The notes: a model not told the origin generated them from the letters alone. Numbered from the stretch's first letter, positions 1,593 through 48,856 are shown. The stretch: DNA of 64,000 nucleotides from Acutalibacteraceae bacterium (GCA_036307305.1 JAXJXV010000021.1:68276-132275); one strand, 5' to 3'. Translations and numbers: made by a program.

Positions 1593-2315
1593 ATGGAAGA
1601 TAAAAAAGAGCTTCGATTTGATTCAAAACAAAAAATAGAGCATTATAAAAAAGTCAAAACTAGTCCGTGGCCATATTTAATGATAGTAGCGTTAGTGTTG
1701 TTATTTGATACAGTAATTCTATATCTTCGTTTTTCTGATTATTATGGAAATATAGATGGAACTGCTATTATTCTTACTGTTGTATTTTCATTGATTTTTA
1801 TTGCGTTCTTTGTTGCATATTGGAATATTACAATCGATATGCAAATCACAAAATATAAGAAGCTGGTAGTTGAAAAGGAAATTACAGAGATTCCGGAAAG
1901 TTTGGAGTTGGATATTGATAAGAATCTTATAAAATTAAGTTTTAAATATTTAGATCAGTATTATCTGCAAACACGTGAACATGCTCAAAAAGGTTTTGCG
2001 GTTACTATTGGAGTTTCAATAGTAGGTGCTTTTATCCTCGCTGGAGGAATAATCGCATTGTTTCTGGGTAAAACAAGTCCAGCATATGTCACTACCGCAA
2101 CTGGAATAATAACCGAGTTTATTTCTGCTATTTATTTTTATCTGTATAATAAAACAGTACAAGGAATGGGTTCATATCATAATAAACTAGTTCTTTCCCA
2201 AAACATTGCATTAGCTTTGAAATTGTCAAATTCGCTTGAAAATAAAAGCGATGAAGCAAAATTAAATATTATTAACGAACTTGTAAAGGATATTAATACA
2301 CATATAGAAAAATAG
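1593..2315 (+). CDS. membrane protein with about 4 TM helices; the C-terminal 2-TM module resembles, from memory, TRADD-N-associated membrane domains
   Basis: RBS is aagaggaatgttttATG. Hydrophobic helices are PYLMIVALVLLFDTVILYL, AIILTVVFSLIFIAFFVAYW, FAVTIGVSIVGAFILAGGIIALFLG and TTATGIITEFISAIYFYLY. Confidence 0.6.
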   Translation: MEDKKELRFDSKQKIEHYKKVKTSPWPYLMIVALVLLFDTVILYLRFSDYYGNIDGTAIILTVVFSLIFIAFFVAYWNITIDMQITKYKKLVVEKEITEIPESLELDIDKNLIKLSFKYLDQYYLQTREHAQKGFAVTIGVSIVGAFILAGGIIALFLGKTSPAYVTTATGIITEFISAIYFYLYNKTVQGMGSYHNKLVLSQNIALALKLSNSLENKSDEAKLNIINELVKDINTHIEK

Positions 2316-3398: not shown

Positions 3399-4331
3399 TT
3401 ATATAATACTAAGTTTGGTAACGGAATTTGCTTCCAAAACATCTTTTGTTTCGTTATCTTGAAAAATTTTAAAACAAAGGTAACGAATTAGTAAAGACGT
3501 TTCATCTGCGGTGCTAATCTTGAAATCGCCCGAATCATCAAGCGGTATATGTAACATCTCGGCAACTTTCTTTCGACTACGTTTATCCTTGATTCTATTT
3601 ACTCTCTCTGTTTTCAGTGTAATAAAAGTGCGAGAAGACTTGTACTGTGTAGCAAGAGATTTAAATGTTTCAACATTGCTAAAGGCATTTGTATTTACAA
3701 TTTCATCGATGGCTTCATTTTTTACTTTTGCCATTGTTTTTTCAAGATTAAACAATGTTTCAAAAGTGTGATTAAATGTATACATTGCGCCGTTATACAC
3801 AATTAGGTCGACGGTTAAATACAAACGACAAACATCGTCAGTTATTAAATCGAGTTCGTCATTTGCTGTTGTAGAGAATACTACTGATTTTTTGTTACTG
3901 AGTTTAGTTATAGGGTTAGCCAGCTTTATAAACGTTACGGGATTATCTTCTTCGGTAGAAGGTTGTCCATACAGTATATAACCGTTAATTCTTCCTTCAA
4001 TCTTTTGGTCAGAAGAAGCAGCTACCGCACTATTAAACAATGACCACTGCTCGGATACTAACTCATCCGTTATTAGTAACTTATCGCAAGATACTTTGCT
4101 ATTCTCTCCATCATAACTTTGCACATTGCTTATGGGTTCGATTTGAAAGTTTTCCGTTGCATTTAATAAATTAGATGCATATTGTGAAAGATAAGTTCCA
4201 TTCTTGAAACGAACTTTACTCACTTTATAAGGTTGTTTGCCACGGTTATCTATCTTGAAGAAGTATAAAGACCAACTATAACTATGTTCTTTTAGTGAAG
4301 AACACATGCTTTTTAGTATTTCTTTGCTCAT
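3399..4331 (-). CDS. KwaB-like protein (candidate Kiwa component, DUF4868-like)
   Basis: 310-aa soluble protein whose start overlaps the stop of the upstream 4-TM gene by 4 nt. Size and gene pairing fit Kiwa. The domain assignment is from memory, not a search. Confidence 0.45.
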   Translation of the reverse strand: MSKEILKSMCSSLKEHSYSWSLYFFKIDNRGKQPYKVSKVRFKNGTYLSQYASNLLNATENFQIEPISNVQSYDGENSKVSCDKLLITDELVSEQWSLFNSAVAASSDQKIEGRINGYILYGQPSTEEDNPVTFIKLANPITKLSNKKSVVFSTTANDELDLITDDVCRLYLTVDLIVYNGAMYTFNHTFETLFNLEKTMAKVKNEAIDEIVNTNAFSNVETFKSLATQYKSSRTFITLKTERVNRIKDKRSRKKVAEMLHIPLDDSGDFKISTADETSLLIRYLCFKIFQDNETKDVLEANSVTKLSII

Positions 4332-4966
4332 TCCTTTTCACCTTTGCTTTCCGTAATGTATATATAATTATCGAAATCCCAATACGATACATTATTTTGT
4401 TCTTCTTGAGTGAGGTCATCTTTGCTTATGACAAGACTATCATGATAGGTATGTTTCTCTTCAAGGATAGTACATTCAAGGTCACAGATAAACATTCGAT
4501 ATCCTTTGAATTCCAAGAAGATATTTGTATAAATATTGTTATTTCTTATACACAGAAAAGCCAAAACTGCAAAATAAATCAAAAATAAAGATAGATTTTG
4601 AAGATCGCCAAAATCAAAAGCAATCATAGGCAAAATATACGCGAGCAAAAACTCTGAAGATAGCTTGTTTGCTTTTGTTGCTTTAAGGACGGTTGCTTTA
4701 GGATTATCATCAGAGGAGTTTAATTTTTTGAGGAAAGCATTTATTCCGCCTATACTGCAAAGAACTACAATAACTATTGCAATAATACTAATTACCTGAA
4801 TACAACCTTCGCTTAATGAAGTAACTATATTTTCTAAAGTTTTAACTTTTTCATCCCATTTATCCATTACGATTAAAACAAAATCCCATGTGTCTATAAC
4901 AATAATAGAAATCCATAGGGGGATAAAAGATGTAACAAACATATCCCATTTAAATTTTCTCCACAT
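4328..4966 (-). CDS. KwaA-like 4-TM membrane protein (candidate Kiwa component)
   Basis: 212 aa with RBS agaggtga. Four hydrophobic helices (FVTSFIPLWISIIVI, IQVISIIAIVIVVLCSIGGINAF, FLLAYILPMIAFDF, LSLFLIYFAVLAFLCI) are followed by a soluble tail of about 70 aa. Confidence 0.45.
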   Translation of the reverse strand: MWRKFKWDMFVTSFIPLWISIIVIDTWDFVLIVMDKWDEKVKTLENIVTSLSEGCIQVISIIAIVIVVLCSIGGINAFLKKLNSSDDNPKATVLKATKANKLSSEFLLAYILPMIAFDFGDLQNLSLFLIYFAVLAFLCIRNNNIYTNIFLEFKGYRMFICDLECTILEEKHTYHDSLVISKDDLTQEEQNNVSYWDFDNYIYITESKGEKE

Positions 4967-5130
4967 AAAACGCTCACCTCTTTTTTATGATTTAACAGAA
5001 ACTTTAATTATAGAAAGTAACGACCGCATATTGCCGTTAGTTTAACAACACAGCAGAACACTTTTTCTCTATTAAATAACTACACTATTTGTTGGATTAT
5101 AGCTTTGATTATATATGTTTTTCATGGTTT

Positions 5131-6390
5131 CTATTGCTTTTTTATTTCTCTTATTATCCATACTGCACCGAATATAACAAAGATGCCCATGACAATCCAA
5201 AAGGAAATATTGAACGGGAGTTTAAACTCGGTCTGTAATACTTGTAGAGTTTGAGCACTGCCAAACAATGCAAGTATGTATAGAAGGATATTTAGCAAGC
5301 GACCATTGTTACTGATTTTCCTATCTTGATAAATGTTTAGCGTCTTTAATTTGAAGTCAATTGCTTGTTTATATCTTGTAAATGAGTAGGTGTTTTTTAG
5401 ATTATCAATCATATTTAAAGTGATAATTGGAACATGACGCGGGTACAATTGACTTTCTGCATAAATTTGATGATCGACTATTTCATCTAGTTTATGGTGT
5501 ATTTCATAGTCTATTATCATTTTTAATAATATAAAAATCTTAAAACCTTCAAGAATCATACAATCATTAAGAATATGATGCTTTTCCATTCCGTTACTGA
5601 TATCAGTAACCACACCTAAATACTCTGTGGAATAAAAATTGAATGCGTCTGTTGCCGAAATGTTTTTCACATTAAAATCTTCAACTTTTCCTCCTAACAC
5701 GCATTGAAAATATTCCGTAATGTTCTCTAACTTATTAGATAAAACGAGAATGTTATGAACATAACTATAGTTTCCAACTTCCCATTTATTGTTTGATGAT
5801 TTTGTCAAAAAACCATATACATTTTTAAAAATGATATCAGATATCTTACGATGGTCTTCTGAAAACTCCGCTTCATTAAAATACTTTATTTTATCAATAG
5901 GTTTGATTCCGAAATTATTAGATCTTCCATAAATAGCTTTTGACTCTAATGGAATACCAGTCTTAAAATCGATTAATTCAAAATTTACAATTAATGAACC
6001 GCTCATTATAAATGCTACAGGATCAACTTGATATACCACCTCTCCAAACATAACAAGAAAACGTTCCAAATTAAAGCAAGTATTAATTTGGATAAGCGTA
6101 GGATCTAAGAGCGCATTTGCTGAATGTTGGAGATAAAGAGTGGTCATCATCTCGTCAGCAAACTTTGCATAAGTCTTGTTATATTCTTCAAAATTCTTTT
6201 CAAAGTGAAATGCTGTAACTTGATTAAGAGAGTTGTATTCAGCCGTGTAATGACATTTAGCATAGGGAGTAATATAGGTGTTGTTGTGGGAAAAACCTGC
6301 TATGTGGAACTGAGTCCAAAAATCTTTCTTTGCTTTTTTTCCGAATCGAAAATGATGTCGTTCTATTTTATGAATGTTATAAGCGGTCAT
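5131..6390 (-). CDS. hypothetical 419-aa protein with a soluble N-terminal region and a C-terminal two-helix membrane hairpin
   Basis: Long ORF in the AT-rich block. The C-terminus reads LLNILLYILALFGSAQTLQVL ... FNISFWIVMGIFVIFGAVWII REIKKQ. There is no recognisable catalytic motif. Its own SD is weak, but an upstream micro-ORF overlaps its start codon in an ATGA. Confidence 0.7.
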   Translation of the reverse strand: MTAYNIHKIERHHFRFGKKAKKDFWTQFHIAGFSHNNTYITPYAKCHYTAEYNSLNQVTAFHFEKNFEEYNKTYAKFADEMMTTLYLQHSANALLDPTLIQINTCFNLERFLVMFGEVVYQVDPVAFIMSGSLIVNFELIDFKTGIPLESKAIYGRSNNFGIKPIDKIKYFNEAEFSEDHRKISDIIFKNVYGFLTKSSNNKWEVGNYSYVHNILVLSNKLENITEYFQCVLGGKVEDFNVKNISATDAFNFYSTEYLGVVTDISNGMEKHHILNDCMILEGFKIFILLKMIIDYEIHHKLDEIVDHQIYAESQLYPRHVPIITLNMIDNLKNTYSFTRYKQAIDFKLKTLNIYQDRKISNNGRLLNILLYILALFGSAQTLQVLQTEFKLPFNISFWIVMGIFVIFGAVWIIREIKKQ

Positions 6391-6461
6391 AAATACAACG
6401 GTTTCTTTTCTGTATTTGTCTTCGGTTGAACATCGTGCTTTATTTTCTTATATTTAGCCAT
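6387..6461 (-). CDS. 24-codon lysine-rich micro-ORF (MAKYKKIKHDVQPKTNTEKKPLYL), translationally coupled to the 419-aa gene
   Basis: It is below the ORF-track length cutoff. A strong SD (ggggaggtg) lies about 8 nt upstream of the ATG at 6461. Its TGA stop (6389..6387) overlaps the ATG of the downstream gene (6390..6388). Confidence 0.4.
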   Translation of the reverse strand: MAKYKKIKHDVQPKTNTEKKPLYL

Positions 6462-6515
6462 TCTCCGCACCTCCCCAATTATTTGAATACAACAATTATC
6501 TTTCTCAAAGCCCGT

Positions 6516-7631
6516 TTAAAATACAAATTGACATGTTCCTCCGCCGAGCCAGTTTACCTTCTTTGATATGCCGCCTTTTTCTCCGGAAACAACTTGTTCC
6601 ATGCGTTTGATAACATAGTCGCAAGTTTTATATTCACTTTCAATGCCGATATAATTACGATTGAGTTTATGAGCTGCAGAAACAGTCGTGCCAGAACCCA
6701 AGAACGCATCCATAACGAGCTCATTTTCATTTGTAGCAATCTCGATTATTTGACCGATCAATGTTTCTGGTTTGGGCGTATCAAATATATCTTTGTCATA
6801 AATTTTTAATGCTTTCAAATGCGTTTTGGCATCTTTATTTGTGCCAACAAATGACGACAACCATAAAGTTTCTGGTACAACACCACGTGGTCTATCCTTT
6901 AAAAACTTTTTGGCACGGGGGACTCCGTTACCATCATTACCAAACCAAATGTTGCCTTGAGCAATTTCCTCAGTCATTTTTTCCTTATTATAGATCCAGC
7001 ATCTACCTTTTGGAGGAGTATGAATTTTTCCGTTCGGGGCAATTATCTCGTAAAACTGGCTTTCAACTGCATGCCCATCTTGGACGTTAACGGATACAGA
7101 TTGCCATGGCCCTCTAGGATCGTTATCTGGATTATGGTAGCGAGTCAACACATCTTCGGTGATCGGTAACAAATTTCGTTTTTTCTTGAATAATTCAGGA
7201 TTTGGAGAATAAACCAAAATGTACTCATGATTATTTGAGAATGCTTTTCTGTTTTCACGGGTGTTTCTTTGCTGCCATATTAACGTTGTTACAAAGGATT
7301 TTCTACCGAAAATAGTGTCACACAACACTTTTAAGTAGTGCATTTCACCATCGTCTATAGATATCCACAAACTCCCGTCATCCTTCAAAAAATCCTTAAG
7401 TTCTCGCAAAACTTGTTCCATCTGCTTCAACCAATTGTCATGGGATTGTACATCGGAATAATATGTATATTTCTCCCCGTTGTTATATGGTGGATCGATA
7501 TAGATACAGCTTACCTGTTTATCGTAAATTGCGTGAAGGCTCTTTAATACATCTATATTATCCCCGTTAAAAACAACATGAGGGTTCTTTGAGTATTCTC
7601 TTTTCCATGTTGAGAAATCTAAATTAATCAT
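6516..7631 (-). CDS. site-specific DNA methyltransferase, beta-class N6A/N4C (N6_N4_Mtase type, Mod-like)
   Basis: Motif IV IYIDPPYN lies N-terminal to motif I AFLGSGTTVSAAHKLNRNYIGIE. Confidence 0.85.
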   Translation of the reverse strand: MINLDFSTWKREYSKNPHVVFNGDNIDVLKSLHAIYDKQVSCIYIDPPYNNGEKYTYYSDVQSHDNWLKQMEQVLRELKDFLKDDGSLWISIDDGEMHYLKVLCDTIFGRKSFVTTLIWQQRNTRENRKAFSNNHEYILVYSPNPELFKKKRNLLPITEDVLTRYHNPDNDPRGPWQSVSVNVQDGHAVESQFYEIIAPNGKIHTPPKGRCWIYNKEKMTEEIAQGNIWFGNDGNGVPRAKKFLKDRPRGVVPETLWLSSFVGTNKDAKTHLKALKIYDKDIFDTPKPETLIGQIIEIATNENELVMDAFLGSGTTVSAAHKLNRNYIGIESEYKTCDYVIKRMEQVVSGEKGGISKKVNWLGGGTCQFVF

Positions 7632-7643
7632 AAAACTCTCCTA

Positions 7644-8981
7644 TTATTTACAAACAATAAGCAATTCTGCTTCATCATTTGATTCAAAATTTTTGTCTAC
7701 AGAATTTAGTTTACTGTGAGTGAATTTTCCCGGAGAAACAACTTTTACATCCTCGAAATACTGATTTGCTTTTTCAATCAATTGATCGATTGTCTGCAAC
7801 CGAGGAGTAACTGCTTTTGAAGCATCAAAAGGAGAATATGATAAGACCAGAGGAACTCCCAGTTCTCTGACTTTTTGAAACAATTTATCAAATGCTTCTT
7901 CGGCCTCACTTTTTATGCAAAAAGGAGATTGATGTCTACCTGTTCGATAAATAGCACGGCTTATTCCGCCTTTGCCATTAGGGAAGGTTGTTGTAACTTT
8001 TGGGTTATCACGCAGACAAATAGTTTCAAGAACATGATAGTATCGACTATAATGGTAGCGTGTATATGGTGGATCGGCATATACTGCTGCTACCGGTATG
8101 CCTTTCAATTTATCTATAGCTGTAATGTAATCATCACAAATCATAGTATGTTTATGTTGTGTTTGGCCTATAGATAAGTAATAATTCAACCACCTCTCAT
8201 AAGTGGTATACACATCTTCATTTCTGTCTTTGAGTATTTTTTTTAGCAGTGATTTTTTTAATTCACCTTTAGAGTTTCGAACTTTAAGAGGTTGGGCGAA
8301 TTGTTTTCCTACCGTGTTTACTAAATCGCTTGCAGTGCTCAAAAGTGCAGCCAAGGATTTTGTTTTTAAAACACCATTTTGCCCAAATACCCAGTGTGCG
8401 ATACAGTCCATATCTATGGCCTGTTTGTATGAGTAATATAAGCCGCCATAGTATCTGCATATCATACTGTCTGCATGTGCAATGTTTTTGTTGGCATAAA
8501 GTTTATCAAAAGAAACTTTAATAGCATGTTTTAGTGCTCTAGATAAGCCAACTGATTCCTCGTGTTCAAAAATGTATAAAGAACCACACTCTATTATTTC
8601 GTATAGATGTTGATAACAGCCCTTTTCTGCAGACTCGATGCATTCTTTTTCGTGAGCAATCAATGACGTAAAAATATTATTGATTTCTGCTGTTTGGGGG
8701 TGACTTTTTATATTGTCTATTATCTCATTTGCTGGAACAGGCGAATTAATGAAGCTTGTAGAAGCTTCACATAAAACTTTTGAATACTCTTGAATATCGA
8801 CTGATATCACATCATAGGTATGAAGTAGATATTTAGATACTGTTCCGGAACCAGAAAAAAGATCACAAATCGCACCAGGGGTGTCTACGACCTCTAATAA
8901 GGCTTTTTCAATAGAATCCAGCATTCGCAGTTTGCTTCCTAAATAGTGAATAGGACGCACTTCTTTAGTTTCTTTGTTCAT
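7644..8981 (-). CDS. DNA adenine methyltransferase, D12/Dam-like class
   Basis: IHYLGSKLRML (Dam YxGxK signature), DLFSGSGTV (motif I) and VYADPPYTRYHYSRYYH (motif IV). Confidence 0.8.
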   Translation of the reverse strand: MNKETKEVRPIHYLGSKLRMLDSIEKALLEVVDTPGAICDLFSGSGTVSKYLLHTYDVISVDIQEYSKVLCEASTSFINSPVPANEIIDNIKSHPQTAEINNIFTSLIAHEKECIESAEKGCYQHLYEIIECGSLYIFEHEESVGLSRALKHAIKVSFDKLYANKNIAHADSMICRYYGGLYYSYKQAIDMDCIAHWVFGQNGVLKTKSLAALLSTASDLVNTVGKQFAQPLKVRNSKGELKKSLLKKILKDRNEDVYTTYERWLNYYLSIGQTQHKHTMICDDYITAIDKLKGIPVAAVYADPPYTRYHYSRYYHVLETICLRDNPKVTTTFPNGKGGISRAIYRTGRHQSPFCIKSEAEEAFDKLFQKVRELGVPLVLSYSPFDASKAVTPRLQTIDQLIEKANQYFEDVKVVSPGKFTHSKLNSVDKNFESNDEAELLIVCK

Positions 8982-8985
8982 GTGC

Positions 8986-10233
8986 TCATTCCTTATCTAA
9001 TCTTTGCCATATTGATAATGAGGGTATATTGTCTAAAACTTCTTTTGCCGTAAAAGTTAGTCGGCGCATTTTAGTTGTATGTTTTTCTTTTTTAGAAATA
9101 AAGGACAGGGCTTGATCGTATACATCTTGTTCCGGCATTAGCAATGTATAGATAAAATCACGTTGTGATACCCTTGCAAATACCGCAATTGGACGATTCC
9201 CATTTGAAGGATATGCCAATCCGTTTGCAGCTTCTAATTCAAAACGATAATTTTGGCTTGAAACAGAAACACTGGGGCGTATCTCTGTCTCACACATACT
9301 TCCATCAGAATTTACGCATTTTAGAAGAATTCTGTAGGCGCCATTCTCTCCACAGGTTGCTCCAAAATAGTTTTCAAAAGTATTTTTGTCAAAATTAGCT
9401 TGTTTCCAGCGATTGCCGCTTCTTGGAATTTCAGCGATCAATACATCACTGTCGGATGTTATTGTCCAGTATGAAGCATCAATATCAATTTCTTCGTCTG
9501 TAATAGGAAGCGTAATGATATCTACTTTCTCTTCTTTTTTAGGAGTCGTATCTGCTTCTACGACTTTAACCGACGGTTGTTTTATATCTTTTGGCTGATT
9601 CTTGTAAATGTTTGCTAATTCATCAGTAACTTTTTGTTTAGTAGAATTTTTCTTTACAGATGCTTTTGCGACACTTACAGCTCTTGTTTGTTCTGTGTTC
9701 TGCTTCGCTCTTGCCATGACAATCGGATCATCTATGTCAAACAAAAATGGCAAACTGTGTGTATACCAAGAATTCCATTCTTCAGTGACTCTATCCATAT
9801 TTTCAGCATCGTACGGAATTACACTGTATGCTTCTCTATTATGTCGAAGTCCTTTTTGCGTTAAATTTCCAGATCCTAACACTAACACTCCGCCTTCTTG
9901 TTTTTCAAACCAAGAAAACTTTGGATGGAAAGTGGATCCTTTATTGCTATGTATATAAGCTTTTACTATCAAGTGGTCATTATATTTTTTCTTCAATTCT
10001 ATCAGGGTATTTACTGCGTGTTCGTTGGTAATATCATCAGTTCCGACAATTAAGGTAAAAACACCCTTCTGAAGGAAAGATTTGAAGTTTTCGTCTTCAA
10101 AAAGAAGGTTGATACCATCTTTTGAAGCAAACGCGTATGCACCGCCGCCACGTTTGCTTCCAACGCATTCGCTAAGTAAAGTTTCGTGTAAATACATTGA
10201 GGTTTTATATGAAGGATCTTGGATATAAAGCAT
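8986..10233 (-). CDS. PLD-superfamily (single HKD) nuclease with a Lys-rich linker and an extra C-terminal domain; BfiI/NgoFVII-like restriction endonuclease candidate
   Basis: One HKD-type motif, FHPKFSWFEKQEGGVLVLGSGNLT (HxK...GSxN). The linker is KKNSTKQKV...TTPKKEEKV. A C-terminal domain of about 170 aa follows. The gene sits 4 nt upstream of two methyltransferase genes. Confidence 0.65.
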   Translation of the reverse strand: MLYIQDPSYKTSMYLHETLLSECVGSKRGGGAYAFASKDGINLLFEDENFKSFLQKGVFTLIVGTDDITNEHAVNTLIELKKKYNDHLIVKAYIHSNKGSTFHPKFSWFEKQEGGVLVLGSGNLTQKGLRHNREAYSVIPYDAENMDRVTEEWNSWYTHSLPFLFDIDDPIVMARAKQNTEQTRAVSVAKASVKKNSTKQKVTDELANIYKNQPKDIKQPSVKVVEADTTPKKEEKVDIITLPITDEEIDIDASYWTITSDSDVLIAEIPRSGNRWKQANFDKNTFENYFGATCGENGAYRILLKCVNSDGSMCETEIRPSVSVSSQNYRFELEAANGLAYPSNGNRPIAVFARVSQRDFIYTLLMPEQDVYDQALSFISKKEKHTTKMRRLTFTAKEVLDNIPSLSIWQRLDKE

Positions 10234-10251
10234 AAAGAAATCAACTCCTCT

Positions 10252-11148
10252 TTAGTTCTCGTTATACGCACGATCGATAAGCGGTTTAGCTTTTTCAAAG
10301 TCTGCAGCATTTTGTAAATGAAGTTCTACAGCACCACAGCCCCAGTGACCAATATTAGTCACGTCTCGTGAAAATCCCGGCTCAAATGTTACTGAAGTAA
10401 CATCAATAGGCAGGTTCAAAATCAGCTTTTTCTTTAGTGCAACTACTGTTACAATGTTACGGATTTTCTTGAAAGCGGCGTAAAGCTTCAAGTGAGTTTC
10501 GGAAACATCATCACCAAGACTGAGGATATAATTAGTTAGATCTTGATATAAAGTTTTTACTGATTCATCAGCCGTCTTTAATTGTTCGTCAAATGTTTTA
10601 TCGGTGGATTTTGTCTTAGTGGTTTGAGCGTCATTGTCGGGAATTGCTGTTGCAACATTTTCATTGATGTGTTCAAACATCAACAGATCGCTGCCAAATT
10701 TCTTATATCTAATCAGGCTGACATTTCTATTCATTTGCTTAATAGCAGATTCATCGTACTTTGTGAAGTCGCCAGCAATACAAACAACACGAGGCATTGT
10801 CCAGTCAATCTTGTCTGCTTCTTTGAGTCCGAGTTTTTCAATTACTAAAACCTTAAAACTATCCTTATGATCTAAAAGCCAGTTAAGATAAAACAAACCT
10901 TGATTGATTACATTCTCTTTCATAGAACGTTTATATTCGAAGATGACCGGACAATGGTTTTCATCAATACCGATGCTATCCATTCGACCACCATCTGTTG
11001 TCTTGTATTCAGAAGCAAGAAAAGTTACACCGAAAAAGATTTCCATATTATTTTCAATAACGGTCTGTAACTCTTTTTCAAGTGTTACGTTGCCGCTTTG
11101 GTATTCTTTTACCTTGCCGTTTATGTTAAAAAGTTTTATATCAGCCAT
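10252..11148 (-). CDS. NucS/DUF91-like PD-(D/E)xK endonuclease domain fused to a DUF5655-like C-terminal domain
   Basis: GRMDSIGIDENHCPVIFEYKRSMKENVINQGLFYLNWL fits the D...ExK...Q..Y pattern of NucS-like nucleases. The C-terminal LYAAFKKIRNIV...GHWGCGAVE resembles DUF5655, from memory. Confidence 0.6.
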   Translation of the reverse strand: MADIKLFNINGKVKEYQSGNVTLEKELQTVIENNMEIFFGVTFLASEYKTTDGGRMDSIGIDENHCPVIFEYKRSMKENVINQGLFYLNWLLDHKDSFKVLVIEKLGLKEADKIDWTMPRVVCIAGDFTKYDESAIKQMNRNVSLIRYKKFGSDLLMFEHINENVATAIPDNDAQTTKTKSTDKTFDEQLKTADESVKTLYQDLTNYILSLGDDVSETHLKLYAAFKKIRNIVTVVALKKKLILNLPIDVTSVTFEPGFSRDVTNIGHWGCGAVELHLQNAADFEKAKPLIDRAYNEN

Positions 11149-11452
11149 TTTCTTTGTCCTCCAACTCTAACTTTGCAAGTTTTGCTTTTAGGAAATCTAT
11201 TTGAAACTGCATATTCGTAATAATAAGATTATCAGCAACTTGATAAAGGCTAACACTTCCGCTTACTGCTTGCTTTGCTTTAGTTGCTAATGCTAACTCG
11301 GCATCTGTAATTTGAAGCGATGTTATCTTTTCAATCGCATTGTTACGATCAAGAAAACCGCTCGTTTGAAATTGATAAACAATTTTTTCTCGCTCGGCTA
11401 TATCCTTTGCAAGGGATAATTTATCGTATTCTTTTTTTATTGGGTTACTCAT
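11141..11452 (-). CDS. small (103 aa) predicted alpha-helical/coiled-coil protein, first gene of the operon
   Basis: RBS is ggagcaaatATG. Its stop overlaps the downstream start by 8 nt. No motif recognised. Confidence 0.6.
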   Translation of the reverse strand: MSNPIKKEYDKLSLAKDIAEREKIVYQFQTSGFLDRNNAIEKITSLQITDAELALATKAKQAVSGSVSLYQVADNLIITNMQFQIDFLKAKLAKLELEDKENG

Positions 11453-11562
11453 ATTTGCTCCATTCTGTTATCCCTCATATGTCTACAAAACTCGCATCAA
11501 TGGTGCAAATTTTAGCAAGAGAGATGATATGTGTGGGGGAATAGTTTATTTATTTTTATATG

Positions 11563-12162
11563 TTAACTATGTAGCAGTATCTCCATAATGTCCATCACTT
11601 TATTGTAAACCCTCAGCTTCTTTGCGTAATCGGAAAGGGCGATGAGGTTTTTCTGCGTATCGTTTGCGTATGCATTTACCGCTTTACTGAACATTTCGTT
11701 ATCTACCTTGCCACGATGCTTGAACATATCGCAAATGGTGCGCTCACGGTCGTAAATAGCAAATGTAACGCCATTTTCGGTAATCGTGGTTTTACCGAGC
11801 TCATAGATATCGTCTTTAACGTAATAGACCTTTATCGGCACGGAGGTATTAAGCCTGCGTGATGCACTTCTCGGCACGGTAACAGACCAAACCCTCGGCA
11901 TAAAATCGCTGTAGCCATAACGGAACAGAGCCGATTCCATACTGATGATCGCTTCGGGAATGGTAGAAGCGATTACCTGCTCATCGGAGAGGATCAGCTC
12001 GTCTGCAAGTTGATAATAGCCTTGACGGACACGCTGAAGAAAGCCGTCTGAACACAGCTTATATATCTTCTCTTTTGGCACGCCGGCGGATGTGAGAGCA
12101 GACAGCTTTGCAATTCCGCCGTTGGCACTGATTATGTTTTTTATAATATCTTTATGTTCCAA
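11563..12162 (-). CDS. AbiEi-like (type IV toxin-antitoxin antitoxin / wHTH regulator), no cognate AbiEii present
   Basis: N-terminal wHTH is IISANGGIAKLSALTSAGVPKEKIYKLCSDGFLQRVRQGYYQL. The C-terminal domain has SMESALFRYGY...IYDRERTICDMF. The likely start is the TTG at 12162, 7 nt after GGAGG, rather than the longer ORF-track start. Confidence 0.65.
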   Translation of the reverse strand: MEHKDIIKNIISANGGIAKLSALTSAGVPKEKIYKLCSDGFLQRVRQGYYQLADELILSDEQVIASTIPEAIISMESALFRYGYSDFMPRVWSVTVPRSASRRLNTSVPIKVYYVKDDIYELGKTTITENGVTFAIYDRERTICDMFKHRGKVDNEMFSKAVNAYANDTQKNLIALSDYAKKLRVYNKVMDIMEILLHS

Positions 12163-12377
12163 TGTCCTACCTCCAATAAACGATAACACATTGTGTTTAA
12201 TGTTTTCTTTTGTATTATAGCACAAGTGTGTGAATATAGCAATAAAAAATCGAAACAAAAATCAATTTGTGTTATCATTTTTTGAATTCAATTGCTTCTT
12301 TGGCGCTTATCGAAAGATAGGCGTCTTTTTTTATGCCTATTTTTTTAAACACCCTTGTGGATCGGGGTATCCCTGTG

Positions 12378-12917
12378 CGAATTGGTGAAGGGTTCTCTCA
12401 AACGCACCTTGAAAACTGAATAGCGCCGATCTAATACGACTTTGCGATGATACGAGCAAGGCAACGCTACGGTGAGATTCCGAGCAGGAACTTGAGGTTG
12501 GGCAAAAAAATTTTTTCAAAAACACCCGATAATTTACGGCTGCTCTGTGGGAACAAGTGAGAGGAAATTTTGCAAACAGACTTAAAAAATACCCTTTCCC
12601 ATTGCAAATAAGTGAGGAAATAAAAATTTTCTCTCAAAAAGGGTGTGTATTTAGGCTTTCCCAGTGGGAATTAGTAGAGGGGTAAATATTTTTTTGCGAT
12701 TTGGGTGTCCAAAACACTGCTCCCATTGCAGATAAGTGAAGGGCAAAAAAATATTTTTCAGAAATCTCGACAAATGGGTGTCCAAAACAGCACCTCTTGT
12801 CCGAATGAGTGAAGGGATAAATTTTTTCTTCGAGTCGGGTGTGCAAAAGCATTCCTTAAATTCCTAATTAGTGAGGGGGTGCAAATCGGGGGTGTAATTC
12901 CAAATAAGTGAAAGGAG
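12378..12917. repeat. degenerate iteron-like array (7-8 copies; core AAnTnAGTGArGGG plus GGGTGTCCAAAAC-like half)
   Basis: Cores lie at about 12378, 12551, 12604, 12666, 12728, 12800, 12862 and 12899. Four of the spacings between neighbouring cores are about 62 nt. Confidence 0.6.
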
Positions 12918-13024
12918 GTGTTGTCAAACCGCAAAAACAGTCGGAGGTCTTAAATATATAAATAAATATATAACTTACTCTCCGAAAAAGAATGAATTTT
13001 TAATCTATAGAAAGGAGTGAGCAA

Positions 13025-13327
13025 ATGGCAAACAACAAGGTCTACAGCCGAGCAGAAATGCAGGAAGCAGGCATCGTAACCTACGATTATGCTTTTATGG
13101 ACAAGCCCGGTGAATATATCGGAACGCTCGAAATGAAAGCAGAAGCAAGGGGCGGAATGCTTCGTCTTTTTCTTCGGTTGGTAGACGGAAGAAAGATCAT
13201 AACGCCGGTGTTCTGGTGGCAAGGGTATTTAGGCTTCAACGAAATGAACAACGGCACAAAGCTTAAGCTTGTCTACGGACAAAGCGGCAAAGGCAGTACC
13301 TATTTAAAACAGATCGAAAAATTTTAG
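13025..13327 (+). CDS. hypothetical protein (first gene of the recombinase-module operon)
   Basis: RBS is aaaggagtgagcaaATG. 100 aa, no motif recognised. Confidence 0.6.
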   Translation: MANNKVYSRAEMQEAGIVTYDYAFMDKPGEYIGTLEMKAEARGGMLRLFLRLVDGRKIITPVFWWQGYLGFNEMNNGTKLKLVYGQSGKGSTYLKQIEKF

Positions 13328-13339
13328 GAGGAAACAAAA

Positions 13340-13555
13340 ATGTTTGAATACAAAATCATCAAGAAAATCGGAGTTGCGGGGGAAAATCTCAACGACACAA
13401 AGGAAATCAATATCATCAAGTGGAGCGACAACGCACCGTGTATCGATGTGCGACGTTGGAGAAACGGCAAACCGCTGAAGGGCATTGCTTTTTATCCCGA
13501 TGAGATTGACGAACTAATCAAGCTACTCAAAAAAGCGAAAAAGGAGGTCATATAA
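13340..13555 (+). CDS. PC4/YdbC-like small ssDNA-binding-fold protein
   Basis: GGAGG RBS. EINIIKWSDNAPCIDVRRW...GKPLKGIAFYPDEIDELIKLL fits the YdbC/PC4-like pattern, from memory. Confidence 0.45.
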   Translation: MFEYKIIKKIGVAGENLNDTKEINIIKWSDNAPCIDVRRWRNGKPLKGIAFYPDEIDELIKLLKKAKKEVI

Positions 13556-14470
13556 ATGGCAAGAAAATCAGATTTTACTCTGCCGCCGATCCCCATTGAT
13601 GCCATCTTTTCAACACAGGCGGAAAGAGACGATGCGCTCTTAGAGCGAGTACACAATATTCCTCTTGAGCAATTGCACCCATTCAGGGATCATCCATTCA
13701 AAATTCAGTCAGGAGAGGAAATGGATAAAATGATAGAGAGTATCCGCAAGGTTGGGGCGATAACACCTGCACTTGCACGACCGCTTGAGGATGGCGGGTT
13801 TGAGCTGATATCGGGACACCGCAGACTTGCTGCGTGTCAAGTATTGGGACTTAAAACAATGCCCGTAATTGTTCGTGAAATGACAGATGATGAGGCGGTG
13901 ATCGCAATGGTAGATGCAAATTTGCAAAGAGAAACCATACTCCCCAGCGAAAAGGCGTTTGCTTATCGGATGAAGTTGGAAGCAATAAAACACCAAGGTA
14001 GGAGTATTTCCCGACAACTTGTCGGAAAGGAAAGCGCTGACACACTTTCAAATGATGAAAGCGGCAGACAAGTCCAAAGATATATCCGCCTAACATACCT
14101 CATCCCCGAATTACTCACCAAGGTAGACGAAGGCGAAATTGCTTTCAGTCCGGCGGTAGAAATCTCATTCTTGACAGAGGATGAGCAAAGAATCCTGCTT
14201 GATGCAATCGAACTAAACGACTGCACGCCTTCCCACGCACAAAGCATACGGCTGAAAAAGCTATCGCAGGACTGTGTACTGACCAAAGACCAAATATACG
14301 AACTGATGGCGGAGGAAAAGCCGAACCAACAGGAGCATTTGCGGTTTCGCAGAGAGGATTTCAACGGATATTTCCCTAAGTCCTACACCGAACAGCAGAT
14401 AAAGAAAGATATCCTGAAAGGTTTAGAGCTTTTGCACCGCCACCGACAGCGAAACCGTGATGCGAGATAA
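13556..14470 (+). CDS. ParB/Srx N-terminal domain protein (ParB-like nuclease domain)
   Basis: LHPFRDHPF...FELISGHRRLAACQVLGL...MPVIVRE is the classic ParB-N box. Confidence 0.8.
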   Translation: MARKSDFTLPPIPIDAIFSTQAERDDALLERVHNIPLEQLHPFRDHPFKIQSGEEMDKMIESIRKVGAITPALARPLEDGGFELISGHRRLAACQVLGLKTMPVIVREMTDDEAVIAMVDANLQRETILPSEKAFAYRMKLEAIKHQGRSISRQLVGKESADTLSNDESGRQVQRYIRLTYLIPELLTKVDEGEIAFSPAVEISFLTEDEQRILLDAIELNDCTPSHAQSIRLKKLSQDCVLTKDQIYELMAEEKPNQQEHLRFRREDFNGYFPKSYTEQQIKKDILKGLELLHRHRQRNRDAR

Positions 14471-14499
14471 GAATCGCACATTTGTAAAGGAGGAGCACT

Positions 14500-14688
14500 A
14501 TGATTACAATTATTAAGGATAAAAATCCTAACCATATTTTCGCCGCCTTAAAGCTTTGCGAACAGCTTTATCACGACGGCAAAATTCCGTTATATATGTT
14601 TCGAAATATGGTAAATCAGCACGCTGACGTGGTGGATGCCTCGAAATTTAATTTCACCATTCAGCAGGAAGGAGAAAAAGCCGGATGA
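14500..14688 (+). CDS. small hypothetical protein, ATGA-coupled to the recombinase gene
   Basis: aaaggagg RBS. Its stop overlaps the ATG at 14685. Confidence 0.55.
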
Positions 14689-16439
14689 TGTATCGATACA
14701 ATGAATTTGACGAACGAAGGGTGGTGATTTATGCCCGTGTTTCCACCGAGCACGAAGCACAGATATCCGCACTCAGCAATCAGCTGGAATGGTATCAGCA
14801 ATACCTCGACCACCACCCCGAATGGAACTTAATTGACCGCTATATTGACGAGGGTATCACGGGAACCTCGGCGGAAAAACGACCGGGATTTACCCAGATG
14901 ATTGCAGATGCCAAGGCACACAAGTTTGACCTAATCATTACACGTGAGGTCTCCCGATTTGCACGTAATACCGAGGAAACCCTGCACTTTACAAAGATGC
15001 TTCGCCGCATCGGTGTTGAAGTGTTCTTTATTAACGATAATATCAAAACCTTTGACGGCGACGGCGAGCTTCGCCTTACCATAATGGCGAGCCTTGCACA
15101 GGACGAAAGCCGCAAGACCTCTATCCGAGTGAAAAGCGGTCAACAGATCTCTATGGAAAAAGGCGTGTTCTACGGCAACGGCAATATTCTCGGCTATGAC
15201 CGAGTGTAGAAAATCGTGGAGGGCAACAAAAAGCAGGTGGATTTCAATATCAATCCCGTGCAAGCCGAAACGGTGCGTAAGATATTTGATATGTACCTTG
15301 AGGGACACGGCCTAATGGCAATAAAAAATGAAATGGAGCGAACGGGGCGTAGGACTGCTACGGGACTACCGAATTGGCATTGCACGGGAATCTCCCAAAC
15401 GCTCAAGAACTCCTTTTACTGCGGTATCATTACCTACCACAAGGAATACACTCCCGACTTTTTGGTGCAGAAAAAGGTAAAAAACTACGGTGAAATGGCA
15501 TTAACACAAGTGCAAGGCAGACACGAGCCGATTATAACCGTTGAAGAATACGAAAGGGTGCAAAAAATCATGAAAAGCAAAACGGGAAAACTCAAGAATC
15601 CAACCGCAGGAAGAAAGCTGACGGGCGTAACACCGCCAAAGACCGTATGGGGCAGACTGATGATCTGCTCCTGCGGTAGGCGGTTTAACCGCCGCAAATG
15701 GAGAACCAACGCTAACGGCGAAAAGTTCTTCGGCTATCAATGCTACGGCACAACGCAAACAGGCACTATCAAAAGTCGCCTAAAACGTGGACTCCCAATT
15801 GACGGTATCTGTCAGTCACCGATGATTGCCGAGTGGAAGCTGCAGATGATGGCAAACTATATCTTCCGGCACTTTCTAACCAATAAGCAAAAGGTATTGG
15901 AAATCGCAAACTCCTTACTTGAGGAGCATATCGGCGATACCGAGGTGCAAGTGCAGGATAATTCAAAACTCATTGAGCAGAAACAACGTGAGCTTGACAG
16001 AGCCAACACCAAGCGCAGAAATCTTGTTGATTTGCTTAGCAATTGCGATATCACCCGTGAGGACTATCAAGAGGCACGTGCCGAGGTGGATAAGCAGATA
16101 GATAAACTCAAGGCGGAGATCGAAGAACTGACACCCGTAGTCGAGGAAACCGAGGAGGAAGAAATTGACTACGAAAGCAAGATAACCGTTCTCCGATATG
16201 CCTTGGAGCAATACACCAATTTTGATACCGACGGCGATATCCCCGAAAGCGTTATCGAAGCCTTTGTAGAAAAAATCGAGGTTTCAAAGGACTGCTTTAA
16301 GTGGTATCTTCGTGGTGATTTCGGCGGCGACTCTCCCATTCCTATGAATGTGGAGGGTAACCGCAAGAAAGGGGCGACAATTTCGCCCCAATACATAATT
16401 CCCCCTGCAAACTTTGGCGACTCAGGCAGCAATCGCTGA
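14685..16439 (+). pseudogene. large serine recombinase interrupted by one in-frame TAG (15207..15209)
   Basis: The N-terminal resolvase domain ([13 protein letters not shown], catalytic Ser) ends at TAG. The recombinase, zinc-ribbon and coiled-coil part continues in the same frame from 15210 (ORF 15216..16439). Confidence 0.8.
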
Positions 16440-16486
16440 TATGTAATTTTAACGAAATTAATTTCGTAGCATAAAACAATCAATCC

Positions 16487-16504
16487 CCTCGGAGCAATCC
16501 GAGG
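16487..16504 (+). terminator. hairpin after the recombinase gene (no clear T-tract)
   Basis: cctcgga-gcaa-tccgagg. Confidence 0.35.
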
Positions 16505-47267: not shown

Positions 47268-47274
47268 GATAAAA

Positions 47275-47528
47275 ACCGATGAGTAAGAAGAGTAGTTTAT
47301 CTTAAGGCTTTCAGAGAGTTGCCGTTGGTGTGAGGCGATAACCAAAGGATAAATGAATGGGCTTACGAGGGCGACCTGAAATGCAAAAAGTAGGGAAGAC
47401 GGAGGCTGACCGTTACAGCAGATAGCGTATGTTAGTGCGTGAAGTGTGCCTTGTGGCAAAGTCGGGTGGTACCGCGGATTTTTAAATTCGTCCCGAGTCT
47501 GATATATTCAGACTCGGGTTATTTTTTT
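47275..47528 (+). promoter_or_regulatory. T-box leader, tryptophan-specific (UGG specifier candidate at 47358..47360), with terminator 47492..47528
   Basis: AG box cagagag, GNUGGA-like ttggtgtgagg, and the T-box sequence aaagtcGGGTGGTACCGCGg at 47458..47477. The terminator is cccgagtctga/tcagactcggg plus a T-run. The downstream gene is trpB. Confidence 0.85.
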
Positions 47529-47638: not shown

Positions 47639-48856
47639 ATGAATTTTAACGGAATTGATTTTGATACCTATCTTAAGAATTATCCTAACGAAGAGGGATA
47701 TTTCGGTAAATACGGCGGAGCTTATGTAAACGACGATTTGAAGAAAGCTATGAACGAAATAACTCAGGCGTATTTTACTATTTGTAAATCAAGAAAGTTT
47801 ATTGACGAACTTAGAAGAATAAGAAAAGAATTCCAGGGCAGACCTACACCTATTTCTCACCTTGAAAGACTTTCTAATAAGCTTGGTAACGTTCAGCTTT
47901 ACGTAAAGAGAGAGGACCTTAACCATACAGGCGCACACAAGCTTAATCACTGTATGGGTGAAGCGCTTCTTGCTAAATATATGGGTAAGAAAAAGCTTAT
48001 TGCCGAAACAGGAGCAGGTCAGCACGGTGTTGCTATTGCTACGGCGGCTGCATATTTCGGTCTTGAGTGCGACGTTTATATGGGAAGCGTTGATATAAAG
48101 AAACAAGCTCCCAACGTTGCAAGAATGAAGATTCTTGGCGCAAACGTAGTTGAGGTTACACACGGTCTTGCAACCTTGAAAGAGGCCGTTGACGCTGCTT
48201 TTGAAGCGTATGCTAAGGATTATGAGAACAGTATTTACTGTATCGGCAGTGTTGTTGGCCCTCATCCGTTTCCAATGATGGTAAGAGATTTCCAGAGCGT
48301 TGTGGGTATTGAAGCAAGAGAACAGTTTGTTGAGATGACGGGCGAACTGCCTGATGCTGTTGTAGCCTGTGTGGGCGGCGGCTCTAACTCTGCAGGATTT
48401 TTCTCAGGCTTCCTTAATGACCCTGTTGATATTTACGGTATTGAGCCTCTCGGCAGAGGAACTAAAATGGGCGACCACGCCGCTTCTCTGCAGTACGGTA
48501 CAGAGGGTGTAATGCACGGCTTTAACAGTATAATGCTTAAGGACGAGAATGGCGACCCTGCGCCTGTATATTCCGTTGCAAGTGGTCTTGACTATCCTTC
48601 CAGCGGTCCCGAACACGCATTCTTACATGAGCTTGGCAGAGTAAAATATGATGTTATCGGTGATGATGATACTATTGATGCATTCTTTACTCTTTCCCGT
48701 CTTGAAGGTATAATCCCCGCTATTGAAAGCTCTCACGCCGTTGCTTACGGTATGAAACTTGCGCGTGAAATGGGTAAGGGCAGTGTGCTTATTAACCTTT
48801 CGGGCAGAGGCGATAAGGATATGGATTATATTATCGAAAAGTACGGAATAAGATGA
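47639..48856 (+). CDS. trpB: tryptophan synthase beta chain (standalone, no adjacent trpA)
   Basis: [15 protein letters not shown] (PLP lysine), [17 protein letters not shown] and GGGSNSAG. Confidence 0.85.

Follow-up and report, generated by a model that had tools for sequence, protein, structure and literature searches.

Few restriction enzymes with a phospholipase D (PLD)-type nuclease domain have, to our knowledge, been characterized. BfiI, which uses cytosine methylases, and NgoAVII R are the PDB entries in which a PLD domain is paired with a B3-like domain. PrrC and RloC, which represent another kind of effector associated with restriction, are anticodon nucleases that are triggered when restriction is blocked. 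NgoAVII and CglI enzymes require a DEAD-family helicase subunit (PMC4267653), and LlaKI of Lactococcus lactis, a type II enzyme that requires no metal, has the site GGATG and a 50-kDa subunit that forms a dimer in solution (PMC4392985). Here we describe a five-gene operon in a defense island of an Acutalibacteraceae metagenome-assembled genome (MAG). The island lies within a 64,000-nucleotide (nt) stretch of DNA, referred to as the window, and gene coordinates are positions in this window. Genes 3 to 5 resemble BfiI in the layout of their PLD nuclease and in being accompanied by two separate methylases, and they are preceded by a second, unrelated nuclease gene (gene 2) and a small gene (gene 1). 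The operon is likely a composite of two separable defense modules, one consisting of genes 3 to 5 and the other of gene 2 with the optional gene 1.

Organization of the operon

The operon comprises the following genes, given in their presumed order of transcription with the protein names used by NCBI.

11141..11452, minus strand: gene 1, 103 amino acids (aa), "hypothetical protein" (MEE0946869)
10252..11148, minus strand: gene 2, 298 aa, "DUF5655 domain-containing protein" (MEE0946868.1)
8986..10233, minus strand: gene 3, 415 aa, "phospholipase D family protein" (accession within MEE0946869 down to MEE0946865)
7644..8981, minus strand: gene 4, 445 aa, "DNA adenine methylase" (accession within MEE0946869 down to MEE0946865)
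6516..7631, minus strand: gene 5, 371 aa, "site-specific DNA-methyltransferase" (MEE0946865)

The initial annotation of this DNA, made from the sequence alone, had described five genes packed as in an operon, and a listing of open reading frames (ORFs) returned five on the minus strand with the same spacing, i.e., an overlap of 8 nt between genes 1 and 2 and gaps of 18, 4, and 12 nt between the following genes. A Shine-Dalgarno-like purine run is present 5' of every one of the five start codons. Genes 2 and 3 are real genes rather than chance ORFs, as they have >7,700 and 806 homologues, respectively, the latter all full length. Because of the close spacing, genes 1 to 5 are probably transcribed together, with both nucleases co-expressed. 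No terminator-like sites were found on the minus strand inside the five-gene block, by a scan that performed no better on it than on shuffled sequence, and a scan for consensus promoters and terminators returned a number of sites not above that in shuffled sequence and did not define the limits of the transcript. Megablast searches with window positions 6000-13000 against plasmids and against phages gave no match.

The predicted restriction-modification unit

The gene order of PLD nuclease, D12 methylase, and N6_N4 methylase (the triad) was found in 12 of the 12 gut loci that were fetched via PLD homologues. A further 80 metagenome loci were examined, and the order was judged only where the locus was long enough; most such loci carry the triad, down to a PLD identity of 33%. 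In total, the triad is present in >70 loci, including loci from gut, soil, and freshwater metagenomes with PLD identities of 33 to 95%, and it is also found on a plasmid of Acinetobacter pittii, where the PLD homologue is labeled only "phospholipase D family protein" by NCBI. Linked cognate methylase genes, by which type II restriction-modification (R-M) systems are recognized, are present beside the PLD gene both here and in the relatives, and homologues of gene 4 are always linked to homologues of gene 3. The proposal that the three distal genes are a BfiI-like R-M system, put forward in the initial annotation, was corroborated by the conserved order of the triad, by BfiI being the top structural match of gene 3, and by a DPPY motif in both methylases. 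These findings support the view that genes 3 to 5 are one BfiI-like R-M unit, old and self-sufficient. In the annotated gut neighborhoods, the triad has no conserved helicase or ATPase gene as its neighbor (the metagenome loci were annotated for the query genes only), and it therefore resembles BfiI rather than NgoAVII/CglI.

The gene 3 product is divided as follows in an AlphaFold model.

9649..10233, minus strand: N-terminal Nuc-like PLD catalytic domain, residues 1-195, confident in the model
9865-9927, minus strand: single HxK...GSGN motif (H103, K105, G120-S121-G122-N123)
9502..9648, minus strand: Lys-rich flexible linker, residues 196-244, disordered, with a predicted local distance difference test score (pLDDT) of <50
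8989..9501, minus strand: C-terminal domain, presumed to recognize DNA, residues 245-415, confidently modeled

The model as a whole (pLDDT 80.8) consists of two confident domains and a disordered joint, and together with an alignment of 29 homologues (44 to 95% identity) it confirmed the layout of single motif, Lys-rich linker, and second domain that had been read from the sequence. Residues H103, K105, G120, S121, G122, and N123 are invariant in this alignment, and the linker differs among the homologues in both length and sequence. The C-terminal domain, which is beta-rich with two or three helices in the model, is highly conserved and has 43 invariant positions.

Sequence comparisons linked gene 3 to described families near or below the limits of significance. 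Pfam PLDc_2 (E value of 7.7e-6; 26.2 bits, with a cutoff of 27) and the N-terminal PLD domain of RE_NgoFVII (E value of 0.0025) were both matched slightly below the cutoff. A sequence search of PDB with gene 3 (and with gene 2) yielded nothing useful, and a profile of the PLD family aligned the HxK...GSGN motif to BfiI with an E value of no better than 0.04. Comparison of the model with PDB by Foldseek placed BfiI first (2c1l; E value of 4e-11), followed by SauUSI and then NgoAVII R (4rct; E value of 8e-6 over 421 columns), and the N-terminal domain also matched SauUSI, Nuc, Zucchini, and Tdp1. Alignments exceeded 400 columns only for BfiI and NgoAVII R, and matches to the PLD domain only covered 145 to 226 columns. 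Since full-length alignment was obtained only with entries that combine PLD and B3-like domains, the modeled C-terminal domain is probably B3-like. Two points count against this assignment: it comes from one full-length Foldseek alignment with low template modeling (TM) scores of 0.39/0.43, and the C-terminal domain alone, searched as a profile, had no sequence match in Pfam or PDB.

Both methylases have recognizable families. The gene 4 product matches Pfam MethyltransfD12 (E value of 7e-13) and PADLOC MTase_II (E value of 2e-26), with the motif FSGSG followed by DPPY, and it is a D12-class (alpha) DNA methylase that probably forms N6-methyladenine (m6A). The gene 5 product matches Pfam N6_N4_Mtase (E value of 2e-49), has the motifs in the order DPPY and then FLGSG, and is a beta-class N6/N4 DNA methylase that probably likewise forms m6A. 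The best PADLOC model for gene 5 was the type III Mod type (E value of 5.6e-97). A type III R-M system was nevertheless rejected because this Mod-like gene has no Res helicase-nuclease; no Res-like gene was found in the block within the window or in annotated or conserved related neighborhoods.

That the methylases are two and separate would fit an asymmetric recognition site, without being proof of one. Most likely, each methylase would methylate adenine on one strand of such a site. The fold of the gene 3 nuclease suggests that it would most likely bind unmethylated sites via its C-terminal domain and then cut nearby, using a single HKD active site that needs no metal and is shared between the subunits of a homodimer, as in BfiI. 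Avoidance of short words in the window was considered as a guide to the site that is recognized and gave no information on GGATG or ACTGGG; the observed/expected ratio of GGATG was 0.80 (rank 42 of 512), and this word is not notably avoided.

In sister cassettes from the gut, whose PLD proteins are 54 to 66% identical to gene 3, a gene for a 72- to 77-aa HTH_26 controller-like protein stands directly upstream of the nuclease gene, and it is this position that is occupied here by genes 1 and 2. Searches by tblastn with three HTH_26 proteins of the sister cassettes gave no match near the operon. A type II layout controlled by a C protein was accordingly rejected for this locus, which has no HTH_26 match nearby and only 18 nt between genes 2 and 3.

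The gene 2 family

The features of the gene 2 product are as follows.

10654..11148, minus strand: N-terminal PD-(D/E)xK nuclease domain, residues 1-165
10930-10980, minus strand: catalytic D57...E71-x-K73, invariant in homologue alignments
10258..10590, minus strand: C-terminal DUF5655 domain, residues 187-297 (Pfam PF18899; E value of 2.8e-9)

Gene 2 corresponds over residues 1-297 to PDC-S18 of PADLOC (model PDLC04946; E value of 6.7e-130), a computational candidate that is modeled there as a single-gene system. The suggestion that it contributes a second nuclease fold, PD-(D/E)xK, to the operon agrees with its predicted structure (pLDDT 70.9), for which EndoMS/NucS was the top Foldseek match (5gke and 2vld; E values of about 1e-4), followed by the Shedu nuclease SduA (E value of about 2e-3), Card1, and the cleavage domain of FokI. 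The DUF5655 half had only weak structural matches, to small alpha/beta proteins such as YjbR (2fki, E value of 0.25; also 3dnx, E value of 0.18). The ratio of nonsynonymous to synonymous substitution rates (dN/dS) is 0.006 to 0.02 for gene 2, compared with 0.03 to 0.10 for the restriction genes and 0.13 to 0.20 for gene 1. Because D57, E71, and K73 are invariant, the fold is NucS-like, and dN/dS is so low, gene 2 is, as judged from sequence and model, a functional nuclease gene.

The gene 2 family, for which >7,700 close homologues were found, has 2,802 representatives when clustered at 50%, nearly all of about 300 aa, and it is far more widespread than the triad. At 90% identity, the cluster of gene 2 has 574 members and that of the PLD protein has 6, and gene 2 is found across many Bacillota families at 77 to 99% identity. 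The family is nearly missing from phage records (4 matches among 50,697). None of the 2,802 representatives is fused to a restriction domain; one is fused to a HIRAN domain and one to an amidase, the latter fusion probably being a gene-calling artifact.

Gene 2 was rejected as an orthologue of NucS, as the N-terminal domain of NucS, which serves in DNA binding and dimerization, is absent and DUF5655 is present instead. The match to NucS in sequence is weak (residues 22-88; NCBIfam NucS score of 18.4 bits, with a cutoff of 216), and Pfam NucS_C is present in some gene 2 homologues. The Shedu models of PADLOC did not match gene 2.

A role in DNA repair or maintenance has to be weighed at this point. 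Gene 2 could be a nuclease of this kind that is carried by mobile elements and restriction operons and is no immune effector; its fold is that of a mismatch-repair nuclease, purifying selection on it is extreme in comparison with that on the restriction genes, the family has very few matches in phage records, ribF-truB-rbfA-infB are the neighbors of a solitary copy, and one representative is fused to HIRAN, a domain that binds DNA 3' ends. We consider such a role quite improbable, since gene 2 lacks the NucS N-terminal domain and falls far short of the NucS cutoff (18 bits versus 216), since its patchy and horizontally mobile distribution across Bacillota families is ill-suited to a core repair gene, and since its neighbors are overwhelmingly defense genes. 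The same low probability attaches to a specific version of this role, such as the processing of breaks that arise from self-restriction or from transfer of the element.

Genomic contexts of gene 2

The contexts of gene 2 were counted in 19 full-length loci from reference genomes. Restriction genes, mostly of type I, adjoin gene 2 in 12 of these, and gene 2 mostly stands just 5' of them. The triad is the neighbor in 1 of the 19 loci (L014), and other restriction genes are the neighbors in 11, as follows.

L016, L017, L022, L023, and L029: gene 2 with HsdR-first sets, followed by HsdM and HsdS
L013, L015, L020, and L021: gene 2 with a type I-like methylase and a specificity subunit
L030: gene 2 with HsdM, HsdS, GmrSD, and HsdR
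L027: gene 2 directly downstream of the HsdR gene

Gene 2 overlaps the next gene by 1 to 4 nt in several loci. The same placement before HsdR is found in a second subfamily of gene 2 (about 55% identical). Of the more distant homologues, that of Cupriavidus has hsdS and hsdR on its two sides, and that of Rhizobium adjoins a type I system. We take gene 2 to be a member of COG3586. A putative endonuclease of COG3586 adjoins a type I cluster in Methanosarcina, according to a survey from 2005 (PMC1189080).

Among the 80 metagenome loci with PLD homologues, gene 2 is present in one (L045). The initial annotation had allowed for the possibility that the upstream genes never accompany the triad in other genomes; synteny of the two was found in L008, L009, L010-12, L014, L045, and L121-122. 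Gene 2 also occurs with no restriction system nearby, i.e., on Staphylococcus plasmids, in the solitary copy beside ribF-truB-rbfA-infB, and ahead of a gene for an unknown 952-aa protein. It was rejected as part of the mobile-element backbone, given the solitary copies among housekeeping genes and the copies in proteobacterial type I operons.

One type of gene 2 cluster has an unusual composition. In L013 (8894-15001), as well as in L015 and L020, gene 2 heads a cluster that encodes a methylase, a specificity subunit, and two proteins without a Pfam family. The methylase of L013 (610 aa) has an HSDR_N_2 N terminus and MTase_I as its best PADLOC model and is also mad2-like; the proteins without a Pfam family are 460 and 483 aa long, and the 483-aa protein gives a weak match to a TIR effector. 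The cluster in L015 additionally encodes a Hypoth_Ymh protein. HsdR is not present in clusters of the L013/L015/L020 type.

Gene 1 and alternative upstream partners

Gene 1, a putative coiled-coil protein in the initial annotation, has no family match in Pfam, PADLOC, or NCBIfam. Its homologues in L008, L013, L017, and L021 are 65 to 76% identical over residues 1-87, and in these loci as well as in L121 and L122 they are located directly upstream of gene 2, whatever stands downstream. Gene 1 is absent in L014, and in L008, the closest relative of the operon (PLD 95% identical), it contains an in-frame stop (L008:5503-5763) while genes 2 to 5 are intact. Other genes precede gene 2 elsewhere, namely, a gene for a 106-aa protein in L010, genes for STAND-like ATPases, and a family of about 285 aa without a Pfam or PADLOC match. 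The last family immediately precedes gene 2 homologues in three distinct contexts (L009, L123-132, and L133-142), and the following members, one from each context, are 30 to 81% identical to each other.

L009:4439-5290: member of the ~285-aa family
L124:1887-2732: member of the ~285-aa family
L133:1740-2612: member of the ~285-aa family

Because gene 1 is absent in L014, interrupted in L008, and replaced by other upstream genes elsewhere, it is, on this comparison of sequences, one among several optional partners of gene 2.

Evidence for a probable composite of two modules

When DNA of the window was compared with gene 2 loci that lack the triad, similarity ended where the gene 2 ORF, or gene 1 plus gene 2, begins and ends. 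The genes of the operon also differ in their divergence from the same relatives: in comparison with L009, gene 2 is 58% and the PLD protein 86% identical, and in comparison with L045, the values are 83% and 56%, respectively. Relative to L008, the values of synonymous divergence (dS) for genes 2, 3, 4, and 5 are 0.65, 0.23, 0.31, and 2.0, respectively. Because the divergence of the genes is incongruent and similarity breaks off at the gene 2 ORF boundaries, the operon is, by these sequence comparisons, a recombination mosaic.

This pattern bears on whether the five genes could be one machine, in which the PLD enzyme would depend on genes 1 and 2 as subunits or cofactors. Several features of the operon are in keeping with such an integrated two-nuclease system: the tight, operon-like spacing, the retention of the junction between gene 2 and the PLD gene in at least six distinct loci, the lack of a controller gene in cassettes with genes 1 and 2, and the similarity of the window to L009 and L010, which starts within gene 2, about 50 nt from its 3' end, and suggests that the junction was inherited as a unit. 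However, about 70 triads occur without gene 2, most copies of gene 2 occur without the triad, the divergence of gene 2 and that of the PLD gene are incongruent, and gene 1 is missing in L014 and a pseudogene in L008. An obligatory five-gene system is therefore very improbable. The "two-nuclease R-M variant" suggested in the initial annotation was not upheld, given that most triads and most gene 2 copies occur apart from each other and that DNA similarity ends at ORF limits. The accompanying suggestion of a composite system was borne out, the modules being separable. Gene 2 is already catalogued as the computational candidate PDC-S18.

A different possibility is that gene 2 is an independent single-gene defense nuclease that shares cargo hotspots with restriction systems and does not interact with them functionally. 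The window and related loci have the backbone genes TnpV, DUF6809, ParB_N, and serine recombinase in common, solitary copies of gene 2 are found among housekeeping genes and on Staphylococcus plasmids, further contexts lack a restriction system, and PADLOC treats PDC-S18 as a single-gene system. Pure co-location nevertheless seems somewhat unlikely to us in view of the 1- to 4-nt overlap of gene 2 with the first restriction gene in several loci, the betaproteobacterial copy that is embedded between hsdS and hsdR, and the recurrence of the association with restriction across phyla and outside this family of elements. The putative COG3586 endonuclease beside the Methanosarcina type I cluster points the same way, provided that gene 2 belongs to COG3586 as we assume.

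At the other extreme, the gene 2 family may be dedicated to partnership with restriction systems in general, of type I as well as type II, and cooperate with them functionally. We advance this tentatively and regard it as unlikely. In such a partnership, gene 2 would, for example, finish nicked or cut DNA or act once restriction is blocked. It is no less tentative that the small upstream partners (gene 1 or the ~285-aa family) would be interchangeable and that the HTH_26 gene was displaced in this lineage.

We favor the composite reading, in which the operon is likely made up of two separable defense modules. The second module, gene 2 with or without gene 1, would be an autonomous nuclease that moves between genomes as a discrete unit and preferentially takes up a 5'-terminal position in restriction operons of differing types; in this lineage, it would hold the place of the HTH_26 controller-like gene. 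Several points weigh against parts of this interpretation. First, 7 of the 19 genome loci, as well as the separately found contexts, have gene 2 without any restriction system, and its link to restriction could be co-location in the cargo hotspots of mobile elements. Second, co-transcription is inferred from gene spacing, promoter and terminator scans being no better than for shuffled sequence. Third, a dN/dS near 0.01 is unusual in a defense gene. Finally, no experimental support was found in the literature on DUF5655 and PDC-S18, in which DUF5655 is mentioned merely in passing.

The defense island and its mobile element

The following further features were located in the window.

1593-2315, plus strand: CyanoTRADDas_TM protein at the island edge, 240 aa (Pfam E value of 5e-16), followed by DUF6809 and TnpV
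3399-4331, minus strand: Kiwa KwaB (Pfam KwaB E value of 4e-13), overlapping KwaA by 4 nt
4328-4966, minus strand: Kiwa KwaA (PADLOC E value of 1.8e-20; NCBIfam KwaA)
5131-6390, minus strand: 419-aa protein with a hydrophobic C terminus, no family match
11563-12258, minus strand: AbiEi-type antitoxin/regulator (PADLOC E value of 8.6e-62)
14685-16439, plus strand: large serine recombinase, divided between two ORFs (Resolvase and Recombinase)
47270-47498, plus strand: T-box leader RF00230 (117.9 bits), upstream of an ORF at 47639-48856 and unrelated to the operon

A copy of the 419-aa protein, 93% identical, follows the same triad in L009, and the protein may be the product of another cargo gene or of an occasional sixth member of the operon. 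The AbiEi gene is an orphan, with no AbiEii toxin gene adjoining it and with gene 1 as the next gene downstream. The same AbiEi gene is found upstream in L121 (97% DNA identity) and not in other related loci; a role as regulator of the operon was rejected, as it does not recur in an upstream position in L008, L009, L010, L013, or L014.

The island is flanked by TnpV, DUF6809, ParB_N, and the large serine recombinase, and several related loci have backbone genes in common with it. We take this backbone to be that of a Tn4451-like element, and the defense island thus looks as if it sits on such an element. A single in-frame TAG at 15207-15209 interrupts the recombinase; this may mean that the element is now immobile, or it may be an assembly error. 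The G+C content of the backbone (ParB_N and recombinase; 13000-16500) is about 46%, versus 29 to 38% for the defense cargo (including 4500-6000), and backbone and cargo may be of differing origins. No Rfam family or tRNA was found in or beside the island.

Significance and comparison with known systems

The triad constitutes a large cross-phylum family whose nuclease is labeled by NCBI, both here and in Acinetobacter, only "phospholipase D family protein," and a new metal-independent specificity of type IIS-like character would be of both practical and mechanistic interest. Gene 2 is among the most conserved and most widespread genes of these gut defense islands and repeatedly heads unrelated restriction operons. 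If it cooperates with restriction, it would represent a new layer of restriction-based immunity and provide a function for DUF5655 and PDC-S18; if it does not, the locus is a well-packed defense island on a mobile element. The searchable literature on PDC-S18 contained no description of its heading restriction operons or of alternative upstream partners.

Of the described enzymes, type IIS BfiI/BmrI is like gene 3 in that an N-terminal Nuc-like domain with one HxK...GSxN motif is joined through a linker to a separate C-terminal domain, and the systems are alike in having two separate methylases and no ATPase partner. They differ in that gene 3 has no significant sequence similarity to BfiI (the family profile reached an E value of 0.04 over the catalytic motif), in that the linker of gene 3 is much longer and its C-terminal domain is without a sequence match, and in that the methylases here look like m6A enzymes. 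The R proteins of the ATP-dependent enzymes NgoAVII and CglI combine PLD with a C-terminal DNA-binding domain, the layout presumed for gene 3, as reflected in the match to 4rct and the weak match to Pfam RE_NgoFVII, but no helicase gene is conserved beside the triad here in the annotated neighborhoods. With respect to LlaKI, gene 3 encodes 415 aa with predicted PLD chemistry, and GGATG/CATCC, with one adenine per strand, would fit two m6A methylases; this is a lead only, a coincidence of size and chemistry, as the LlaKI sequence is unpublished.

Gene 2 is similar to NucS/EndoMS and SduA in its PD-(D/E)xK fold and D...ExK catalytic motif. Unlike NucS, it lacks the N-terminal DNA-binding domain and carries DUF5655, and its likeness to SduA is at the level of the fold only, there being no Shedu match in PADLOC. 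As a second, unrelated effector encoded within a restriction operon or at its border, it may be compared with PrrC (EcoprrI), RloC, and GmrSD, and GmrSD-type genes share operons with gene 2 homologues in L021 and L030. In contrast to PrrC and RloC, gene 2 has the predicted fold of a DNA nuclease. The nearest counterparts of the operon as a whole are the HTH_26 sister cassettes of gut Clostridia, which have the same three restriction genes in the same order and differ in that the HTH_26 gene is replaced here by genes 1 and 2.

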